9,408 nt of DNA from a virus (Duplodnaviria; Heunggongvirae; Uroviricota; Caudoviricetes), in the IMG/VR virus record IMGVR_UViG_2541047897_000001, positions 1-9,408 of that record. One strand, 5' to 3'. Below are positions 1 through 7,218 of the stretch, piece after piece (position 1 is the first letter of the stretch; every line of letters starts with the position of its first letter). Both the position numbers and the translations under genes were made by a program. The notes beneath the pieces were generated by a model. The model saw only the letters and a list, made by a program, of their open reading frames with translations, searched no databases and was not told where the DNA came from.

Positions 1-882
1 GTTGCCGTTATGGATGGCAGAACACGCCCGGAACATGCGCGGCTGCACAATATGGTTTTCAGGTATGACGACATTTTCTGGCAGACGCATTACCCGCCCA
101 ATGGCTGGAACTGCCGCTGTCGCGTCCGGGCGCTGTCTGCGGCCCGCATGAAAGAACTGGGGCTACAGGTCAGTTATGGTGCGTCATTCATGAATACCCG
201 CGAAGTGGATGCCGGTACGGATGAAAGCACCGGAGAGATTTTCCGCACATCGTCAACCACGTTTGACAACGGTCGGGTAAAAATGACGCCGGATGTGGGC
301 TGGTCATATAACCCCGGTTCGGCGGCATTTGGTACGGATCAGGCACTGATTCGAAAACTGGTGGAAATTCACGACGCGCAGCTGCGTGAGCAGGTTGTGC
401 AGACACTGAATAACAGCCGGGAGCGTCAGCTTGCTTTTTCCCTCTGGCTTAAACGCCTGGCAGGATCACGTCAGGCCGGTCATGAAATCCGGGCGCTGGG
501 TTTTATGACGGGATCCGTGGCTGAAGCCGTATATCAGCGCACCGGGAATATGCCAGCCCGTTTGCTTGTAATGAACGGGAAAAGTCTGGCGACCACTGCT
601 GATGCCGCCCTGAAACCGGAAGATTTACAGCGTCTGCCGTCGCTGATGGCAAAACCACAGGCGGTATTGTGGGACAGGGAGAACCACCAGTTGCTGTATG
701 TTGTGGCAACCCGCGACGGCACTGCAAAAGTTATGGTCAGAACATCGCAGGCTGTCAGCAAACAGAATGACCGGGCGGATGTGCTGGTCAGTATCAGCCG
801 CGTATCTGCACAGTCGCTTGAAGCCGCGATTGCTGACGGGATGATTGACGTACTGGAGGGGCATGTGGAGGTGAATAAGTGA
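1..882 (+). CDS. F: Head morphogenesis protein, Mu F-like, C-terminal part (5'-truncated by window edge)
   Basis: Frame 1 is open from nt 1 to the TGA at 880-882; the ATG at 10 is only the first in-frame Met, so the gene almost certainly starts upstream of the window. The translated sequence (MVFRYDDIFWQTHYPPNGWNCRCRV...) matches my memory of the Mu F / SPP1 gp7-type head morphogenesis family, and the position directly upstream of G-like and I-like genes fits Mu late-region order. Not confirmed by any search. Confidence 0.8.
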   Translation, partial: VAVMDGRTRPEHARLHNMVFRYDDIFWQTHYPPNGWNCRCRVRALSAARMKELGLQVSYGASFMNTREVDAGTDESTGEIFRTSSTTFDNGRVKMTPDVGWSYNPGSAAFGTDQALIRKLVEIHDAQLREQVVQTLNNSRERQLAFSLWLKRLAGSRQAGHEIRALGFMTGSVAEAVYQRTGNMPARLLVMNGKSLATTADAALKPEDLQRLPSLMAKPQAVLWDRENHQLLYVVATRDGTAKVMVRTSQAVSKQNDRADVLVSISRVSAQSLEAAIADGMIDVLEGHVEVNK

Positions 883-1349
883 GTATTGATATGAACGTTG
901 CCGTGGATGTGCGACGTATTCAGCTTGCGCTGGATGAACTGGGAACCGTCACACGTGACCGCGTCATTCCCCGTGTGATGGCTGCGGCGCTGCTGTCATC
1001 CACGGAACAGGCATTTGAACGGCAGGCAGACCCGGATACAGGGAAAGGCTGGGAAGCGTGGAGCGATTCGTGGCAGGCATGGCGTCAGGATCATGGTTTT
1101 GTTCCGGGCAGTATCCTTACCCTGCATGGCGATCTGGCACGCAGCATTACCACCGATTATGGACAGGATTATGCCCTGATTGGTTCGCCAAAAATTTATG
1201 CTGCCATTCATCAGTGGGGCGGTACACCCGATATGGCACCCCGCCCGGCAGGCGTTCCTGCGCGTCCTTATATGGGGCTGGATAAGACCGGGGAACAGGA
1301 AATTTTTGATGCCATCAGAAAACGCGTCAGCGCCGCTCTGAGGCAATAA
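879..1349 (+). CDS. G: Virion morphogenesis protein, Mu G-like
   Basis: 156-codon ORF starting at GTG 879, which overlaps the F stop. A GGAGG at 866-870 sits 8 nt upstream. An alternative ATG at 891 would give 152 aa. Size and position (after F, before I) match Mu G. Stop TAA at 1347-1349. Confidence 0.75.
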   Translation: MSIDMNVAVDVRRIQLALDELGTVTRDRVIPRVMAAALLSSTEQAFERQADPDTGKGWEAWSDSWQAWRQDHGFVPGSILTLHGDLARSITTDYGQDYALIGSPKIYAAIHQWGGTPDMAPRPAGVPARPYMGLDKTGEQEIFDAIRKRVSAALRQ

Positions 1350-1396
1350 ACAGAATCAGGCATAAAATCAGCCGCACAGATTTTTTAAAACGCGCC

Positions 1397-1438
1397 ACGG
1401 GATTTTTAAACCGGTATTTAACGGTGTATGAATCCCGT
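1397..1438 (+). terminator. Candidate terminator-like hairpin in the G-I intergenic region
   Basis: Inverted repeat acgggatt (1397-1404) / aatcccgt (1431-1438), an 8 bp stem with a large 26 nt loop, followed by the T-rich run ttttatcttccttcc. The loop is larger than a classic intrinsic terminator, so this is tentative. Confidence 0.3.
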
Positions 1439-1545
1439 TTTATCTTCCTTCCACTTTCTTTCTCCAGTACTCAAATAGCATAACCCCAGATTTTCCCGCA
1501 CCTCCCGCAAACTGACTGCTCACAAACCATGATGAGCAGCAGGAC
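1439..1545 (+). promoter_or_regulatory. Probable late promoter region for the I-T head operon (exact -10/-35 not resolved)
   Basis: 196 bp non-coding gap between G and I where all other gene junctions are tight. In Mu a C-activated late promoter (P_I) lies upstream of I. I cannot confidently pick out the hexamers or an activator site by eye. Confidence 0.3.
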
Positions 1546-2628
1546 ATGAAAAAACACGCGATTGGCATTGCCGCACTGAATGCGCTGTCCATTGACGATG
1601 ACGGCTGGTGCCAGCTATTGCCTGCCGGTCATTTCAGTGCCCGTGATGGTCGTCCGTTTGATGTGACAGGCGGTCAGGGGTGGTTCATCGACGGTGAGAT
1701 TGCCGGGCGTCTGGTTGAAGGCGTTCGCGCGCTCAACCAGGACGTGCTGATTGATTACGAGCATAACCAGCTACGTAAGGACAAAGGATTACCCCCGGAA
1801 CAACTCGTCGCGGCTGGCTGGTTTAACGCCGATGAAATGCAGTGGCGTGAAGGTGAAGGATTATTTATCCACCCACGCTGGACGGCGGCGGCACAGCAGC
1901 GCATCGATGACGGCGAATTTGGTTATCTCTCTGCGGTTTTTCCGTATGACACCGCCACCGGTGCGGTGCTGCAAATCCGCCTTGCTGCGCTGACCAATGA
2001 CCCCGGTGCCACCGGCATGAAAAAGCTGACCGCACTGGCGGCAGACCTTCCCGACATCCTTCAACAGGAGAACAAACCCATGAATGAAACGCTGCGCAAG
2101 CTGCTTGCGCGTCTTGGGGTGACTGTCCCCGAAAATGCAGACATCACCGATGAACAGGCAACAGCGGCACTGACCGCGCTGGACACGCTGGAAATTAATG
2201 CCGGGAAAGTGGCGGCGTTGTCTGCCGAACTGGAAAAGGCACAGAAAGCCGCCGTTGACCTGACGAAATACGTCCCGGTGGAAAGCTACAACGCCCTGCG
2301 TGATGAACTGGCCCAGGCGACTGCACAAAGCGCCACAGCCAGCCTGAGCGCCGTTCTGGACAAGGCGGAACAGGAAGGCCGCATTTTCAAAAGCGAACGT
2401 ACCTACCTGGAACAGCTTGGCGGTCAGATTGGCGTGGCGGCACTGTCGGCACAGCTTGAGAAAAAACAGCCCATCGCTGCGTTATCTGCCATGCAGACCA
2501 CCACAGCGAAAATCCCGTCGCAGGAAAAACCGGCGGTGGCGGTGCTGTCTGCGGAAGATCTCGCCGCAGCCCGTCTGCTGGGTAAAACCGAAGCAGAATT
2601 TCTGAAACTGAAAGAGGATTCAAAATAA
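1546..2628 (+). CDS. I: Prohead protease / scaffold protein, Mu I-like
   Basis: 360 aa ORF with ATG at 1546 and AGGA 4-5 nt upstream. The N-terminal half has globular composition and the C-terminal half is Ala/Leu/Glu/Lys/Gln-rich and helical, as expected for a protease-scaffold fusion. Stop TAA at 2626-2628 overlaps the T start (TAATG). Size and position match Mu I. Confidence 0.85.
   Translation: MKKHAIGIAALNALSIDDDGWCQLLPAGHFSARDGRPFDVTGGQGWFIDGEIAGRLVEGVRALNQDVLIDYEHNQLRKDKGLPPEQLVAAGWFNADEMQWREGEGLFIHPRWTAAAQQRIDDGEFGYLSAVFPYDTATGAVLQIRLAALTNDPGATGMKKLTALAADLPDILQQENKPMNETLRKLLARLGVTVPENADITDEQATAALTALDTLEINAGKVAALSAELEKAQKAAVDLTKYVPVESYNALRDELAQATAQSATASLSAVLDKAEQEGRIFKSERTYLEQLGGQIGVAALSAQLEKKQPIAALSAMQTTTAKIPSQEKPAVAVLSAEDLAAARLLGKTEAEFLKLKEDSK
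2080..2628 (+). CDS. Z: Nested in-frame scaffold protein (Mu Z-like), translated from an internal start within I
   Basis: In-frame ATG at 2080 (codon 179 of I) with a strong SD, AGGAG at 2066-2070, 9 nt upstream. The product would be the helical C-terminal 182 aa. Mu is known to make scaffold Z from an internal start in I; the exact start here is inferred. Confidence 0.4.
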   Translation: MNETLRKLLARLGVTVPENADITDEQATAALTALDTLEINAGKVAALSAELEKAQKAAVDLTKYVPVESYNALRDELAQATAQSATASLSAVLDKAEQEGRIFKSERTYLEQLGGQIGVAALSAQLEKKQPIAALSAMQTTTAKIPSQEKPAVAVLSAEDLAAARLLGKTEAEFLKLKEDSK

Positions 2629-3566
2629 TGCCAACTCCGATTACTCCGGCGATGATCACCTCGCTGATGACCGGCTACCGTGGCGATTTTCAGGCCGGTA
2701 TGGCAATGGCCCCGTCGCAGTACCAGCAAATTGCAATGACCGTGCCGTCCACGTCGAAATCCAACACGTACGGCTGGCTGGGCCAGTTTCCGCAATTCCG
2801 TGAGTGGATTGGTTCGCGTGTCATCGAGAAGATGAAAGCCTATGGCTATTCCATTGTGAACAAAACCTTTGAAGGCACGGTAGCCATTAACCGTGATGAC
2901 TTCGAAGACGACAATCTCGGTATTTATTCTCCGCTGTTCCAGGAAATGGGCCGTGCCGCAGCGGCACAGCCGGACGAACTGGTGTTCGCAGCCCTGCGTG
3001 ACGGTGTGAAAGTCGCCTGTTATGACGGACAGAACTTCTTCGATACCGAACATCCTGTTTATCCGAAAGTGGATGGCACCGGAGATGTGCAGAACGTCAG
3101 TAATAAATTTGTGGCACAGACTGCCGAAAAAAGCGATTACACCGGTCCGGCCTGGTATCTGCTTGACTGTTCCCGCGCTGTGAAACCGCTGATTTATCAG
3201 GATCGCCGCAAGGCAGAACTGGTCGCCCAGACAAAAGTCGATGAAGGCCGGGCGTTTACGGATAACGAGTTTGTGTTTGGTGCATCAGCCCGTCGCAATG
3301 TGGGGTACGGCTTCTGGCAGATGGCTTACATGATGCAGGCACCGCTGACGCTGGATAATCTCTGGCTCGGCTGGTCGGCCATGCGTGAATTTACGGCTGA
3401 TGGCGGGCGCAAGCTGGGGATTAAGCCCACGCACATTGTGGTGCCCACCTCTCTGGAAAAACAGGCGGTGCAGTTACTGGAACGCGAACTGTTCGCGGAT
3501 GGCAATACCACCGTCTCCAACGAGATGAAGGGCAAGCTGCAACTGGTTGTCGCTGACTACCTGTAA
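2628..3566 (+). CDS. T: Major capsid (head) protein, Mu T-like
   Basis: 312 aa ORF translationally coupled to I (TAATG). The sequence (MPTPITPAMITSLMTGYRGDFQAGMAMAPSQYQQIA...) matches my memory of the Mu T major head subunit family. It is followed by a strong hairpin terminator, as is common after abundant capsid genes. Confidence 0.9.
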   Translation: MPTPITPAMITSLMTGYRGDFQAGMAMAPSQYQQIAMTVPSTSKSNTYGWLGQFPQFREWIGSRVIEKMKAYGYSIVNKTFEGTVAINRDDFEDDNLGIYSPLFQEMGRAAAAQPDELVFAALRDGVKVACYDGQNFFDTEHPVYPKVDGTGDVQNVSNKFVAQTAEKSDYTGPAWYLLDCSRAVKPLIYQDRRKAELVAQTKVDEGRAFTDNEFVFGASARRNVGYGFWQMAYMMQAPLTLDNLWLGWSAMREFTADGGRKLGIKPTHIVVPTSLEKQAVQLLERELFADGNTTVSNEMKGKLQLVVADYL

Positions 3567-3574
3567 CCGTCATT

Positions 3575-3598
3575 AAAAGGCGGTTCAGACCGCCTTTT
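3575..3598. terminator. Rho-independent terminator/attenuator downstream of the capsid gene
   Basis: Perfect 10 bp inverted repeat aaaaggcggt (3575-3584) / accgcctttt (3589-3598) with a 4 nt loop tcag. The GC core (ggcgg/ccgcc) is flanked by an A-run on the left and a T-run on the right, so it is symmetric and could act on either strand. Confidence 0.6.
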
Positions 3599-3632
3599 AA
3601 CCTGATTTAAAGGAAAAGGAGGAGCATGTGTT

Positions 3633-4043
3633 ATGTCAGGCACTTCGCTTAATTCACAACGGCTGGACACTTCTCGCATCACTTGCACGGCGATTATTAA
3701 ATGCCTTCGTCCGGTCTACCGCCGCGCCGGAATCGCCTTTACACGTGGCGAAAACACCGTGGAAGTCACCGAAGAACAACTGGCGATCATTCGTGCCGAC
3801 AGCGTGCTGTCTGTGGTATCTGCATCGTCAGCAGAAACGCTCGCTGAGGCTGGGGGGCTGGACGTTCTGGGTGTGGGCGATCTGAATACCCGTATCCGTG
3901 CGACCGTTGCCGGTCTGGATAAGGCAAACCCGGAACACTTTACCGCAGGGGGAGAACCCAAAGTGAAAGCCGTCAGTGCGGCGCTGGGAGAAAACGTCAC
4001 TGCGGCACAAATCAAAGCCGCGCTGGCTGAGGCACAAGCATGA
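3633..4043 (+). CDS. Small head-completion protein, Mu gp35-like (hypothetical)
   Basis: 136 aa ORF with ATG at 3633 and a strong SD (ggagg at 3620-3624) 8 nt upstream. The position immediately after the capsid gene matches the Mu/FluMu gp35 slot. Stop TGA overlaps the next start (ATGA at 4040-4043). Confidence 0.65.
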   Translation: MSGTSLNSQRLDTSRITCTAIIKCLRPVYRRAGIAFTRGENTVEVTEEQLAIIRADSVLSVVSASSAETLAEAGGLDVLGVGDLNTRIRATVAGLDKANPEHFTAGGEPKVKAVSAALGENVTAAQIKAALAEAQA

Positions 4044-4462
4044 GCTATGCCACTCTTGACGACATGGTAAAGCGTTACCGGCGCAGCAGCCTGGACGCGC
4101 TGACATCGGATAAAACCGATTCGGGCGAACCGGATGACAGCCTGGTTGAACAGGCGTTACAGGATGCCCGTGCACTTATCGACAGCTATATCAGCCCGCG
4201 TTATCCGTTGCCGTTATCTGTTGTGCCAGCCGCCCTGACCCGCGTCTGCTGTGATATTGCCTTCTATTACCTGTGTGATGCGCAGGCAACCGAGCAGTGC
4301 ACGCAGCGTTATAAAGATGCCGTTAAGTGGCTGCATGACGTACTTAACGAAAAATTGCCGCTGGGAACGGACGCGCATGGCGCTGAACCGGTGAGCGAAA
4401 ATCTGGTGGAAGTGAAATCTGATACCGCTGTTTTTTCCCGTAACCAGAGAGGATTCATCTGA
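4040..4462 (+). CDS. Head-tail connector / neck protein, Mu gp36-like (DUF1320-type)
   Basis: 140 aa ORF with ATG at 4040 overlapping the upstream stop, and gagg 7-8 nt upstream. Position and size match Mu gp36 (often called J). Stop TGA at 4460-4462 overlaps the next start. Confidence 0.7.
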   Translation: MSYATLDDMVKRYRRSSLDALTSDKTDSGEPDDSLVEQALQDARALIDSYISPRYPLPLSVVPAALTRVCCDIAFYYLCDAQATEQCTQRYKDAVKWLHDVLNEKLPLGTDAHGAEPVSENLVEVKSDTAVFSRNQRGFI

Positions 4463-4995
4463 TGATTGCCACGACAGAAGCTGCGTTGCTTGAAACCGTT
4501 CGCGGGCTGTTCGGGCGAACGTTACGCGAAATCAAAACGCATCCGGGCACCTGGTCTGATGCCGCAATAAAAAAAATCCTGATTGCACCACCGTCTGTTT
4601 ATCTGGCGTGGCTGGGCTGCGGTGAAGGCCGCACCCGCCGTGAGGTGGAAAGCCGCTGGGTGTTTTATGTGGTGGCAAAAATGCTGAATGGTCGGGAGAC
4701 CGACCGTCCGGGGATTTACCAGATTGTTGAGCGTCTGATTGCCGGGATGAATGGACAGACGTTTGGCCCGACTACCGGCCTGCGCCTGACCAGCGTCCAG
4801 AACCTGTATACCAGTGCTCAGGGTAATTCAGGTGTCGCACTGTACGGCATCTATTTCAGTGGCATCACGCCGTTGCCGTCAGGTGTGGACATGGATTCGC
4901 TGGATGATTACGAGCGTCACTGGCAGACCTGGAAATTCCCGGACGAAACCCCGGAATTTGCCGCACATATCAATGTTAATGGAGGAACTGATTAG
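4462..4995 (+). CDS. Head-tail joining / tail completion protein, Mu gp37-like
   Basis: 177 aa ORF with ATG at 4462 (TGATG overlap with the upstream stop) and SD agagagga 8 nt upstream. Position and size match Mu gp37 (often called K). Stop TAG at 4993-4995. Confidence 0.7.
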   Translation: MIATTEAALLETVRGLFGRTLREIKTHPGTWSDAAIKKILIAPPSVYLAWLGCGEGRTRREVESRWVFYVVAKMLNGRETDRPGIYQIVERLIAGMNGQTFGPTTGLRLTSVQNLYTSAQGNSGVALYGIYFSGITPLPSGVDMDSLDDYERHWQTWKFPDETPEFAAHINVNGGTD

Positions 4996-5006
4996 TTGGG
5001 GTAAGA

Positions 5007-5034
5007 AAGCCACACAATGCTGGTTGTGTGGCTT
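5007..5034. terminator. Bidirectional hairpin terminator between the convergent gp37-like gene and the minus-strand accessory gene
   Basis: Perfect inverted repeat agccacacaa (5008-5017) / ttgtgtggct (5024-5033) with loop tgctgg, extendable to 11 bp with the a5007:t5034 pair. It lies between two convergent stop codons (TAG at 4993-4995 on +, TAA at 5053-5055 on -). The flanking runs are only moderately U-rich on either strand. Confidence 0.45.
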
Positions 5035-5052
5035 GATTCTGCGGTTTAGTGC

Positions 5053-5385
5053 TTAGGTTCGTTTTTCAGAGATGATAATTCGCTCTCCGTCAATGATGCG
5101 TTGTTTTAACCCACTGATGGTGGCCTGGAAATCTGAACCATCGGGTGCGAATGAAAGCTCGATGGTTCCGCCTGAGTTAAAAACGACGGAATGAAAGATT
5201 TTTCCGTCTTTTCTTTCAATTTCATAGGAACAGATATCCGCAAGGTGTTCTATTCCGAAAGAGAGGATCTTATCCATGTGTGCTGAAACAGATTTTGCAC
5301 GTACAACAGGGGAACCATCCTCCCCGATTTTGATCTCCAGAGGTCCATTGCCGGGAGTCATGGTTACTGGTTTAGGTTCGGTCAT
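5053..5385 (-). CDS. Hypothetical protein, 110 aa; moron-like accessory gene of unknown function, opposite in orientation to the structural operon
   Basis: The only minus-strand ORF that does not lie antisense inside a + strand gene. ATG is the complement of 5383-5385 and the minus-strand reading is AGAGGAG-TATCAAAA-ATG, giving a strong SD about 8 nt upstream. Stop TAA is the complement of 5053-5055. Local GC is about 40-48% by hand count on three 60-nt stretches, clearly AT-richer than the flanking phage genes (not measured). The protein (MTEPKPVTMTPGNGPLEIKIGEDGSPVVRAKSVSAHMDKILSFGIEHLADICSYEIERKDGKIFHSVVFNSGGTIELSFAPDGSDFQATISGLKQRIIDGERIIISEKRT) is hydrophilic, slightly acidic, with no signal peptide or TM segment, and its alternating pattern suggests beta strands. 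I recognise no catalytic motif or family. Confidence 0.6.
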   Translation of the reverse strand: MTEPKPVTMTPGNGPLEIKIGEDGSPVVRAKSVSAHMDKILSFGIEHLADICSYEIERKDGKIFHSVVFNSGGTIELSFAPDGSDFQATISGLKQRIIDGERIIISEKRT

Positions 5386-5419
5386 TTTTGATACTCCTCT
5401 TTTAGAAATAACCGCATCT

Positions 5420-5448
5420 TTTATACAGACAAAAACAATGCGTGAAAA
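5420..5448 (-). promoter_or_regulatory. Candidate sigma70 promoter for the minus-strand accessory gene
   Basis: On the minus strand: TTTTCA (complement of 5443-5448), 17 nt spacer, TATAAA (complement of 5420-5425). This sits about 35 nt upstream of the ATG, in the AT-rich gap. It is a by-eye hexamer match only. Confidence 0.3.
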
Positions 5449-5500
5449 CAGTGCCGGAACATCCTGTCAGTAACCGGGACATATCAGAAAGTAATCTTTA

Positions 5501-5725
5501 GTGAAAATGGCTATGAATGACGTTCTGAAAATTAAACCCGCAGCGGGAAAAGCCATCCGTGACCCGCTCACGATGAAATTACTGGCGTCTGAGGGGGAAG
5601 AAAAGCCCCGTAACAGTTTCTGGATACGTCGCCTTGCAGCCGGTGATGTGGTTGAAGTCGGGAGCACCGAAAACACGGCGGATGATACCGACGCTGCGCC
5701 GAAAAAACGGAGTAAATCGAAATGA
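5501..5725 (+). CDS. Small conserved protein, Mu gp38-like (DUF2635-type)
   Basis: 74-codon ORF from GTG 5501; alternative starts are ATG 5507 or ATG 5513. No convincing SD precedes any of them. Stop TGA at 5723-5725 overlaps the sheath gene start (ATGA). The position immediately upstream of the tail sheath matches Mu gp38. Start codon is uncertain. Confidence 0.55.
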
Positions 5726-7209
5726 GCGATATTTCATTTAACGCGATCCCGTCAGATGTTCGCGTTCCTCTGACGTATATCGAATTTGATAACAGTAATG
5801 CCGTCAGCGGAACACCGGCCCCCCGTCAGCGCGTGCTGATGTTCGGACAAAGCGGAAGTAAAGCCAGTGCGGCACCAGACGTGCCTGTCCGTATCCGTTC
5901 CGGCTCACAGGCCAGAGCGGCGTTTGGTCAGGGTTCCATGCTGGCACTGATGGCAGATGCATTCCTGAACGCTAACCGCGTGGCGGAGCTGTGGTGTATT
6001 CCGCAGGGGAACGGCACCGGTAATGCTGCTGTCGGTGAAATTTCACTGTCAGGAACGGCAGGCGAAAACGGCTCGCTTGTGACTTACATTGCCGGTCAGC
6101 GACTGGCGATATCTGTCGCAGCAGGTGCTACAGGGGCGGCGCTGGCTGACCTGCTGGTTGCCCGAATCAAAGGCCAGCCTGATTTACCGGTGACGGCAGA
6201 AGTTCGCGCAGACAGCGGGGATGATGACACCCATGCAGATGTGGTTCTGAGTGCAAAATTTACGGGTGCATTATCTGCCGTGGATGTGCGCTGGAACTAT
6301 TACGCGGGTGAAACCACCCCTTACGGGATTATCACGGCATTCAAAGCCGCCTCCGGGAAAAATGGCAACCCGGATATCAGCGCAAGTATCGCGGGAATGG
6401 GAGATCTGCAATACAAATATATTGTGATGCCCTATACCGATGAACCGAACCTGAATCTGTTACGCACTGAATTGCAGGAACGCTGGGGACCGGTCAATCA
6501 GGCTGATGGCTTTGCCGTGACAGTGCTGTCCGGCACGTATGGGGATATTTCCACGTTTGGTGTCAGTCGTAATGACCATCTGATCTCCTGTATGGGGATT
6601 GCCGGTGCACCGGAACCGTCATATCTGTACGCCGCCACACTGTGTGCCGTTGCCAGCCAGGCGCTTTCCATCGACCCGGCGCGTCCTCTCCAGACGCTGA
6701 CGTTGCCCGGAAGAATGCCGCCTGCGGTGGGGGATCGTTTCACCTGGTCAGAACGTAATGCGCTGCTGTTTGACGGCATCTCCACGTTTAACGTGAATGA
6801 TGGTGGTGAAATGCAGATTGAACGCATGATCACGATGTACCGCACAAACAAGTACGGTGACAGTGATCCGTCTTATCTGAACGTGAATACCATCGCCACG
6901 CTGAGTTATCTGCGTTATTCACTGCGAACCCGCATCACGCAGAAATTCCCGAACTACAAGCTGGCAAGTGATGGCACCCGCTTTGCCACCGGTCAGGCCG
7001 TGGTGACGCCATCCGTGATCAAAACGGAGCTGCTGGCACTGTTTGAAGAATGGGAAAACGCCGGACTGGTCGAGGATTTCGACACGTTCAAAGAGGAGCT
7101 GTATGTGGCACGTAACAAGGACGACAAAGACCGCCTTGATGTGCTGTGCGGCCCGAATCTGATTAACCAGTTCCGCATTTTCGCGGCACAAGTTCAGTTC
7201 ATTCTGTAA
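5722..7209 (+). CDS. L: Tail sheath protein, Mu L-like
   Basis: 495 aa ORF with ATG at 5722 and ggag 9 nt upstream. Size and position (before a 118 aa tube gene) are typical of a contractile tail sheath and match Mu L. Confidence 0.9.
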
Positions 7210-7218
7210 GGAGCATTT

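Follow-up and report, generated by a model that had tools for sequence, protein, structure and literature searches.

The module between gp37 and gp38

The stretch of DNA analyzed here, hereafter the window, comprises 9,408 nucleotides (nt) (positions 1 to 9,408 of IMG/VR record IMGVR_UViG_2541047897_000001) and corresponds to the 9.4-kb late structural region of a Mu-like myovirus, an Escherichia coli prophage. At the junction of its gp37-like and gp38-like genes, it contains a 548-nt module with one gene on the strand opposite to the late operon, referred to below as the cargo gene. We consider it quite probable that this module is a self-contained antisense moron cassette, composed of a candidate promoter, a leader with a strong ribosome-binding site (RBS), a 110-codon open reading frame (ORF), and its own intrinsic terminator. 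The features of the locus are the following:

4462-4995, plus strand: gp37-like gene, 177 amino acids (aa); Pfam Phage_Mu_Gp37, 6e-20; 98% identity to SfMu gp37, diverging from 4977
4977-5524, no strand assigned: whole module, 548 nt; first mismatches to SfMu at 4977 from the left and at 5524 from the right
4998-5034, minus strand: putative intrinsic terminator of the cargo gene; stem 5007-5017/5024-5034 with a 6-nt loop, then UUUCUUACCCC in the minus-strand RNA
5053-5385, minus strand: cargo ORF, 110 aa; identical to the E. coli 'hypothetical protein' EEV7832156.1 (P0069)
5394-5399, minus strand: Shine-Dalgarno (SD) sequence GAGGAG, 8 nt ahead of the cargo ATG; anti-SD duplex -8.6 kcal/mol
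5405-5418, minus strand: conserved leader element GATGCGGTTATTTC; GGTTATTTC invariant in Mu-like and lambdoid copies
5420-5448, minus strand: candidate sigma-70 promoter; -35 TTTTCA (5443-5448), 17-nt spacer, -10 TATAAA (5420-5425)
5513-5725, plus strand: gp38-like gene (DUF2635), with GTG 5501 and ATG 5507 as further possible starts; Pfam DUF2635, 2.8e-22

Direct alignment of the junction to those of Shigella phage SfMu, phage Mu, and E. coli RM8082, in which the two genes overlap, showed that all three lack 525 nt that are present in the window. This agrees with an earlier note on this DNA, in which an insertion was proposed from the spacer of ~505 bp between the gp37 stop (4995) and the gp38 start (5501); the spacer is there as described, and only the proposed limits, 4996-5500, proved slightly too narrow. 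In a base-by-base comparison, the flanks are 99-100% identical to SfMu over ~900 nt on the left and ~600 nt on the right, and the module extends over 4977-5524, so that it includes codons of both neighboring genes. In its place, SfMu has 23 nt (GAATCAGGAAGAGGATCATGATG) within the gp37/gp38 overlap, so that the net gain is 525 nt. The 3′ end of gp37 is thereby rewritten, its last 6 codons (4977-4995) coming from the module, and the protein ends in NGGTD* instead of NQEEDHDAEN*; gp37 has 182 aa in SfMu, Mu, and RM8082, and in the gp37 segment, identity between RM8082 and the window is 100%. The 5′ end of gp38 is rewritten as well, with its first 4 codons supplied by the module (MNDV-LKIKP instead of M-LKIKP, 3 residues longer). 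The GC content of the module is 43.0%, compared with 55.1% for the remaining window. The 7-bp direct repeat TTTAGTG, described earlier as flanking the module, is present at 5045 and 5497 and is thus internal to it; at least two copies occurred in 30 of 200 shuffled sequences, and chance repeats of 9 nt are found in the same region. The 4977/5524 boundaries lack terminal inverted repeats, and the module encodes no transposase. Insertion of a transposon, an insertion sequence, or a miniature inverted-repeat transposable element was therefore rejected as an origin. A scan of 4900-5600 against Rfam gave no match.

The hairpin noted earlier at 5007-5034 is a perfect, GC-rich 11-nt inverted repeat with a 6-nt loop, and its fold z-scores are -3.1 on the plus strand and -4.6 on the minus strand. 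The stem is present in all loci that carry the cassette (hereafter carriers; their distribution is described below). Three one-sided stem substitutions are all U-G or G-U pairs in the cargo-sense RNA; late-sense RNA would have A-C or C-A instead. The copy found in lambdoid phages shows a compensatory change of A-U to U-A. The T-tail score (d'Aubenton-Carafa type) ranges across loci from 2.44 to 4.93 in the cargo sense and from 0.07 to 2.38 in the late sense, and the cargo-sense value is higher in every locus. Because the substitutions pair only in the minus-strand RNA and the T-tails are biased in the same direction, the hairpin appears to be primarily the terminator of the cargo gene, and these data fit better with termination of the minus-strand gene than of late transcripts.

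Upstream of the cargo gene, the leader (5386-5500) has a GC content of 36.5%, and no carrier departs from the GGAG of the cargo SD. Over the 45 nt that precede the ATG, identity to the lambdoid copies is 69-80%, with the pattern CCTG(T/A)ATAAAGG..G.GGTTATTTCAA...GGAG. Homology to the lambdoid copy ends just upstream of the -10-like box on one side and just past the T-tract on the other, which indicates that the mobile unit consists of leader, ORF, and terminator. Within the conserved leader element, GGUUAUUU (5405-5413) is complementary to AAAUGACC (5380-5388, minus strand), which spans the cargo start codon, and in such a duplex the SD would sit in the loop. RNAalifold pairs the two segments with -5.8 kcal/mol and no covariation; since both sides are invariant, covariation offers no test of the pairing. 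The pairing may form a translational control hairpin, and the element could equally be a protein operator. A scan for the conserved-leader pattern gave no matches in IMG/VR and two chance matches, in unrelated contexts, in metagenomes of the Joint Genome Institute (JGI). As to the AT-rich leader with a minus-strand promoter proposed in the earlier note, the composition and the TTTTCA-17-TATAAA arrangement are both present, but a consensus scan makes no promoter call. TATAAA is kept in the Mu-like carriers, one of which (L003) has TTGCCA-16-TATAAA, and a promoter belonging to the cargo gene itself is plausible on these grounds.

The insertion also changes how gp38 could be translated. In SfMu, Mu, and RM8082, the gp38 ATG lies 14-17 nt ahead of the gp37 stop. 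In the window, the three candidate gp38 starts listed above, which the earlier note had likewise given, have anti-SD duplex energies of only -0.4 to -1.5 kcal/mol, as opposed to -4.0 to -11.6 kcal/mol for other late genes and -5.4 for Mu gp38, so the claim that gp38 lacks a recognizable SD holds for all of them. The region around these starts is 65-70% A+U. Gene callers place the start at 5513 or 5507 (70 or 72 aa). Comparison with the N-termini of homologous gp38 proteins (MSDVLKIKP in L004 and L008, MNDLFLKP and MNDFFLKP in L003 and L025; MNDVLKIKP... in the window) makes ATG 5513 the most likely start. As this codon is 517 nt from the gp37 stop, translational coupling between gp37 and gp38 is geometrically impossible; the earlier suggestion that coupling is broken here is thus upheld, with the overlap lost and no SD in its place, and gp38 would be initiated de novo in an SD-independent manner.

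Distribution and history of the cassette

In seven of seven E. coli assembly or metagenome contigs that match the full window at 97.7-99.7% identity, the cassette is present. The arrangement is evidently tolerated, since this lineage diverged by up to ~2% while keeping it. A wider view was obtained with a sample drawn by gp37 and therefore blind to the cargo gene, comprising 39 Mu-like loci (7 species-representative genomes and 32 IMG/VR contigs). A single locus in this sample has the cassette (L016, from an Enterobacteriaceae metagenome-assembled genome, the same locus as L003). Cargo-free relatives with the same spacer and hairpin, which the earlier note had named as evidence that would speak against an insertion, were looked for in this sample; in the other 38 loci, gp37 and gp38 abut or overlap without any spacer. 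No other cargo was found at the junction in the 39 loci, and the idea that gp37/gp38 is a general cargo hotspot was dropped.

A protein search among 5.8 billion proteins yielded five homologues with 62-97% identity, and each of those with usable context lies at the gp37/gp38 junction in antisense orientation. Position and orientation of the cargo gene are identical in L003-L008 and L060-L066, and at least five diverged Mu-like backbones have the cassette at this site. The protein of the window (P0069) is recorded in 81 index blocks, and a 97% variant occurs in Yersinia enterocolitica. Pairwise dN/dS (the ratio of nonsynonymous to synonymous substitution rates) among the Mu-like copies of the ORF is 0.10-0.42. 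Judging from this purifying selection, from the synteny in five Mu-like backbones, and from the fact that it travels with its leader and terminator, we take the reverse gene to be real, as the earlier note had supposed for 5053-5385. The cassette and its protein were not found in 5,426 complete E. coli genomes (44 of them with a Mu-like gp37), 50,697 GenBank phages, PLSDB, or IMG/VR.

Every carrier could be paired with a cargo-free relative at 86-100% gp37 identity. For the window, these are SfMu, L022, and L049 (100% over 170 aa), for L003 it is L025 (96%), and for L006 they are L018, L036, and L050 (97%). Presence of the cassette is therefore patchy across backbones. When L003 is compared with L025, in which gp37 and gp38 overlap by 8 nt, the boundaries are those seen in the window, after the gp37 HI(N/E)VN codons and at the gp38 ATG. 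Beyond its own cluster, the window cassette has no relative closer than 77% identity, while the flanks are 99-100% identical to SfMu, which implies different histories of backbone and cassette. The simplest account would be exchange of the cassette by recombination within the conserved flanking coding sequence.

Related cassettes also occur outside Mu-like phages. A 48% identical homologue (P0006), found in Yersinia ruckeri, Y. enterocolitica, Y. massiliensis, and Y. pekkanenii, is located in three different lambdoid prophage backbones, where it is antisense to its neighbors, with the Q/NinG antiterminator region on one side and the holin/lysis genes on the other. Between Mu-like and lambdoid copies, synonymous sites are saturated, and the nucleotide identity of the ORFs is 52-57%.

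Two explanations would give the module another meaning or another history. One, put forward in the earlier note in terms of head and tail gene dosage, is that the hairpin is a true bidirectional terminator and that the module mainly attenuates late transcription before gp38-L-M, shifting the head:tail ratio. The stem is indeed perfect in both senses, with energies in the window of -18.8 kcal/mol for the late and -16.1 kcal/mol for the cargo sense, the late-sense tail UUGAUUCUGCGGUUU of the window scores 2.38, near the cargo-sense value of 3.19, and the Mu record has a predicted attenuating terminator after the capsid gene. This explanation is nevertheless improbable, as the late-sense tail is poor in the other carriers (0.07-1.99, with AGGAAAA... 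in L003), the three stem substitutions would be mismatched in late-sense RNA, strong termination should be selected against because each virion needs many copies of sheath and tube, and the lineage persists. Partial attenuation of late transcripts is possible in this window, although it would not be a conserved property. The other explanation, that spacer and gene are ancestral, that Mu, SfMu, and most relatives lost them by deletion, and that the window represents retention, could account for the use of exactly one site in at least five diverged backbones and for a divergence of the cargo protein (62-77% identity) of similar order to that of gp37 (68-75%), as expected from long association with the junction. 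It would, however, require loss from 38 of the 39 gp37-sampled loci, including the most distant one (L052, 43% gp37 identity), and it conflicts with the close cargo-free relative of every carrier, the separate histories of flanks and cassette, the difference in GC content, and the existence of a related cassette in lambdoid phages. We regard it as slightly less probable still.

Acquisition of a cassette is thus the reading that we prefer. An SfMu-type Mu-like E. coli prophage would have acquired the cassette through recombination in conserved sequence at the 3′ terminus of gp37 and the 5′ terminus of gp38, and the cassette would circulate at this junction among several Mu-like backbones. In the lysogen, a promoter of its own would drive the cargo gene, independently of the C-dependent late operon and in the opposite direction, and the host would benefit from its product, a soluble all-beta protein of 12 kDa. 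Late transcription would read through the hairpin, with its weak late-sense T-tract, and gp38 would be initiated de novo at ATG 5513.

The cargo protein, its relatives and possible roles

The cargo protein has a mass of 12 kDa, a pI of 5.6, and a net charge of about -3, and it contains neither a signal peptide nor a transmembrane segment. An AlphaFold2 model calculated from 47 sequences is all-beta with a predicted local distance difference test score (pLDDT) of 92 and supersedes an earlier, poor model from 6 sequences (pLDDT 59). The product is accordingly predicted to be cytoplasmic and all-beta. With this pI and charge, a role as a DNA mimic was discarded. Scans of the protein and 47 family members against Pfam, PHROG, NCBIfam, and PADLOC returned nothing consistent, and in PADLOC-DB 2.0 no family matched the window protein, P0004, or P0005 at E values up to 10. 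No match to described immunity families was found by sequence or fold.

A full hidden Markov model scan of 1.84 billion representatives delineated a family of ~50 clusters with proteins of ~100-130 aa and the motif I.S(V/F)GIENI.D..SY.I....H.(V/I).F..GG...(L/F).Y..dG, in which H64, F68, G71, G72, and G82 are invariant or nearly so. The family profile also gave weak matches with WD40, beta-propeller, and PepSY repeat proteins (P0015, P0016, P0025, P0026), which were set aside as generic beta-hairpin resemblance. The domain does not always stand alone: one protein of 239 aa (P0027) contains two tandem copies, and several other members (P0039, P0058, P0063, and P0065) have N-terminal extensions of 40-90 residues.

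About a dozen gene contexts of distant relatives (25-45% identity) were viewed. Those in phages are antisense or separately oriented small genes, one between HNH/terminase and lysis genes (L068) and three adjoining HNH genes (L009, L010, L057). Those in type VI secretion system (T6SS) clusters are the last gene, in the same orientation as the genes before them, and the effector classes differ. Two Iodobacter contexts read VgrG-PLD effector-Sel1/DUF6396-homologue, one context reads Eag/DcrB-prePAAR-PAAR-SsdA deaminase-Imm5-homologue, one reads VasX_N toxin-two DUF6708 genes-homologue, and Ralstonia plasmids have VgrG-DUF4123-DUF2235-homologue and VgrG-...-DUF3304-effector-homologue. The homologues of L075 and L076 come directly after DUF2235-type effectors and those of L067, L069, and L070 after the cognate immunity gene, and one distant homologue overlaps DotU/TssL. 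Such co-oriented placement downstream of a toxin is absent in the window and the other phage copies. As the neighboring effectors differ and mostly have their own immunity genes, the family protein does not appear to be a cognate immunity protein.

Some further observations were made on these relatives. In the Ralstonia solanacearum species complex, a branch of the family with proteins of 127 aa is widespread (116 plasmid or megaplasmid records). The genes at 6926-7309 of L075 and 6980-7363 of L076 directly follow the Tle1-type (DUF2235) effector of VgrG clusters on conjugative or mobilizable plasmids, and experiments would be easier with this system than with the E. coli prophage. A 117-aa member (P0035; 744-1097 of L014) carries the JGI name 'TnpA family transposase' but has no transposase domain and adjoins DotU, and its name is probably a mis-annotation. 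In a lambdoid Yersinia prophage with a homologous cassette (L054), a gene of the Acb2/Tad1-hairpin type, resembling sponges that act against Thoeris and the cyclic-oligonucleotide-based anti-phage signaling system (CBASS), is located at 4876-5124, ~3 kb from the cassette.

From the T6SS company of the distant relatives, the cargo protein most likely has a protective role in which it would bind and neutralize an incoming protein. That it acts like an orphan immunity protein is a tentative suggestion. The full picture, of an undescribed and structurally novel all-beta family of ~110 aa common to T6SS effector islands and to Mu-like, lambdoid, and HK97-like temperate phages, with the cargo protein as its first phage-borne member and a stand-alone protective factor (immunity-like or anti-phage) whose expression would be gated by pairing of the leader with its own start codon, is more doubtful. 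Several points weigh against the interpretation as a promoter-equipped protective gene. The function assigned to the cargo rests on guilt by association at the identities given above, its fold has no match among solved or viral predicted structures, and no known immunity, defense, or anti-defense model matches the protein. The adjacent effectors of the relatives belong to at least four classes, mostly with their own cognate immunity genes, and no T6SS gene is evident in one Ralstonia megaplasmid context. The candidate promoter matches the consensus at 9 of 12 positions and has an A at the last -10 base, where the scan requires a T; its -35 element varies among carriers, and the -10 of the lambdoid copy is AATAAA. 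In addition, T6SS effector hotspots co-localize with anti-phage systems (bioRxiv 10.64898/2026.08.01.741415), and prophages carry T6SS auxiliary clusters and immunity arrays, as documented in a Ralstonia atlas (PMC11481896), so that the T6SS association cannot separate an immunity-like from an anti-phage role.

This last point favors a rival view of the cargo as an anti-phage, superinfection-exclusion, or anti-defense factor rather than one resembling toxin immunity. Exclusion and defense functions are classically encoded in prophage late regions by antisense genes with separate expression, the lambdoid copies occupy the moron site between Q and lysis genes, and the sponge-like gene in L054 is only a few kb off. 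We consider this view unlikely, although not strongly so, as PADLOC gave no match, six independent chromosomal or plasmid contexts place the relatives directly after effector or immunity genes, co-oriented and not in mixed defense islands, and an anti-defense gene would be expected in an early lytic unit rather than antisense in the late operon. Far less probable is an accessory role in virion or tail assembly of contractile injection systems. It is suggested by the location between the tail terminator and the sheath terminator/sheath genes and by the relatives in T6SS loci, including the one that overlaps DotU/TssL, but the cargo gene has an RBS and a terminator of its own and is antisense to the late operon, and it is absent in 38 of 39 related phages, among them Mu and SfMu, whose tails assemble without it. 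Moreover, close relatives adjoin lysis genes of lambdoid and HK97-like prophages, and in T6SS loci they follow effector/immunity genes and not structural genes. A protective gene in a moron cassette thus remains the interpretation that we favor; its distribution, at the ends of T6SS clusters and in unrelated temperate phages, is that expected of a portable protective gene. As a small single-gene candidate, it is cheap to test, and if the cargo does nothing measurable, an ordinary moron remains.

The late operon and comparison with known systems

The window as a whole is 99% identical to SfMu and 91% identical to Mu at the DNA level, counting matching parts only. Apart from gp37 and gp38, the following late genes were assigned:

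10-882, plus strand: F; strong Pfam and PHROG matches
879-1349, plus strand: G, virion morphogenesis; strong Pfam and PHROG matches
1546-2628, plus strand: protease/scaffold I; strong Pfam and PHROG matches
2628-3566, plus strand: major head protein T; strong Pfam and PHROG matches
3633-4043, plus strand: gp35; strong Pfam and PHROG matches
4040-4462, plus strand: gp36; strong Pfam and PHROG matches
5722-7209, plus strand: tail sheath L; PHROG tail sheath, 4e-210; 4-nt overlap with gp38
7219-7575, plus strand: tube M; strong Pfam and PHROG matches
7585-8019, plus strand: gp41; strong Pfam and PHROG matches

In the curated Mu record AF083977.1, gp37 is named tail terminator/K and gp38 'putative sheath terminator'. 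The label 'portal protein' that gp37 (4462-4995 in the window, 1663-2211 in L001) bears in PHROG 490 and in the RefSeq records of SfMu and Mu is probably a propagated annotation error, the true portal being the Portal_Mu gene further upstream. Overlaps of 1-4 nt, which the earlier note ascribed to the operon in general, are found for F/G, I/T, gp35/36, gp36/37, and gp38/L, but G/I, T/gp35, L/M, and M/gp41 are separated by 196, 66, 9, and 9 nt, respectively. The G/I gap (1350-1545) is the largest other intergenic gap of the operon; in Mu, the late promoter P_I is located in this region, and at the equivalent junction Pseudomonas Mu-like phages carry anti-CRISPR cargo. The major head protein T has 312 aa in the window, and the annotated T coding sequence in SfMu and Mu has 918 nt (305 aa); ungapped identity to SfMu collapses left of ~3500, which points to an indel or a mosaic patch in this capsid gene. 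The 3′ part of the sheath gene (6825-7225) is only 86-92% identical to SfMu, compared with 98-100% for adjoining stretches, and is a second mosaic patch with no relation to the cassette.

Morons were reportedly defined in lambdoid phages by Juhala, Hendrix, and colleagues as genes that come with a promoter and a terminator of their own and separate two genes adjacent to each other in related phages. They often have deviant GC content and are expressed from the prophage. Four of these five textbook features appear to be present, or plausibly so, in the cassette, expression from the prophage being the fifth: the closest relatives lack it at this place, its GC content differs (43% and 55%), and it has its own RBS, candidate promoter, and terminator. 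It is also antisense to the late operon, and a relative is found at the lambdoid Q-to-lysis site. The cassette differs from these examples in that its host is a transposable Mu-like myovirus, its candidate promoter is not a clean consensus, and it is placed inside an overlapping and presumably coupled gene pair, both members of which were given new ends. The unusual points of the architecture, which are modest, also include a leader that is more conserved than the protein and a leader-ORF-terminator unit shared with lambdoid phages. The family itself is undescribed, with a confident predicted fold that has no match and a connection to T6SS islands.

In Pseudomonas Mu-like phages of the JBD30 type, an anti-CRISPR locus is located between G and the I/protease genes. 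As in the window, small cargo is tolerated at a fixed junction of a Mu-like structural operon and exchanged among relatives. However, the junction in the window is gp37/gp38 and not G/I, and the strand is opposite: JBD30-type loci are co-oriented with the late genes and paired with an aca regulator, whereas the window cassette has no second gene. Pfam and PADLOC scans showed no homology of the cargo protein to known Acr or Aca families. With T6SS orphan-immunity genes and auxiliary clusters, the family has in common that its distant members are the last gene in VgrG/PAAR effector-immunity clusters, which occur on chromosomes, on plasmids, and on predicted viral contigs. The window gene, in contrast, has no accompanying effector and no known immunity domain, and the effectors of the relatives vary in class.

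The closest counterpart of the locus is the junction of Mu and SfMu (AF083977.1, NC_027382.1), with the same flanking genes at 91-99% nucleotide identity. There, the gp38 ATG precedes the gp37 stop and has an annotated RBS, whereas in the window the two are far apart and gp38 has no SD. The locus thus represents a natural experiment in which an overlapping pair of tail genes was separated by 517 nt in a lineage that still circulates, and comparison of a carrier with SfMu would show how much weight coupling and the intervening hairpin have for tail gene expression.

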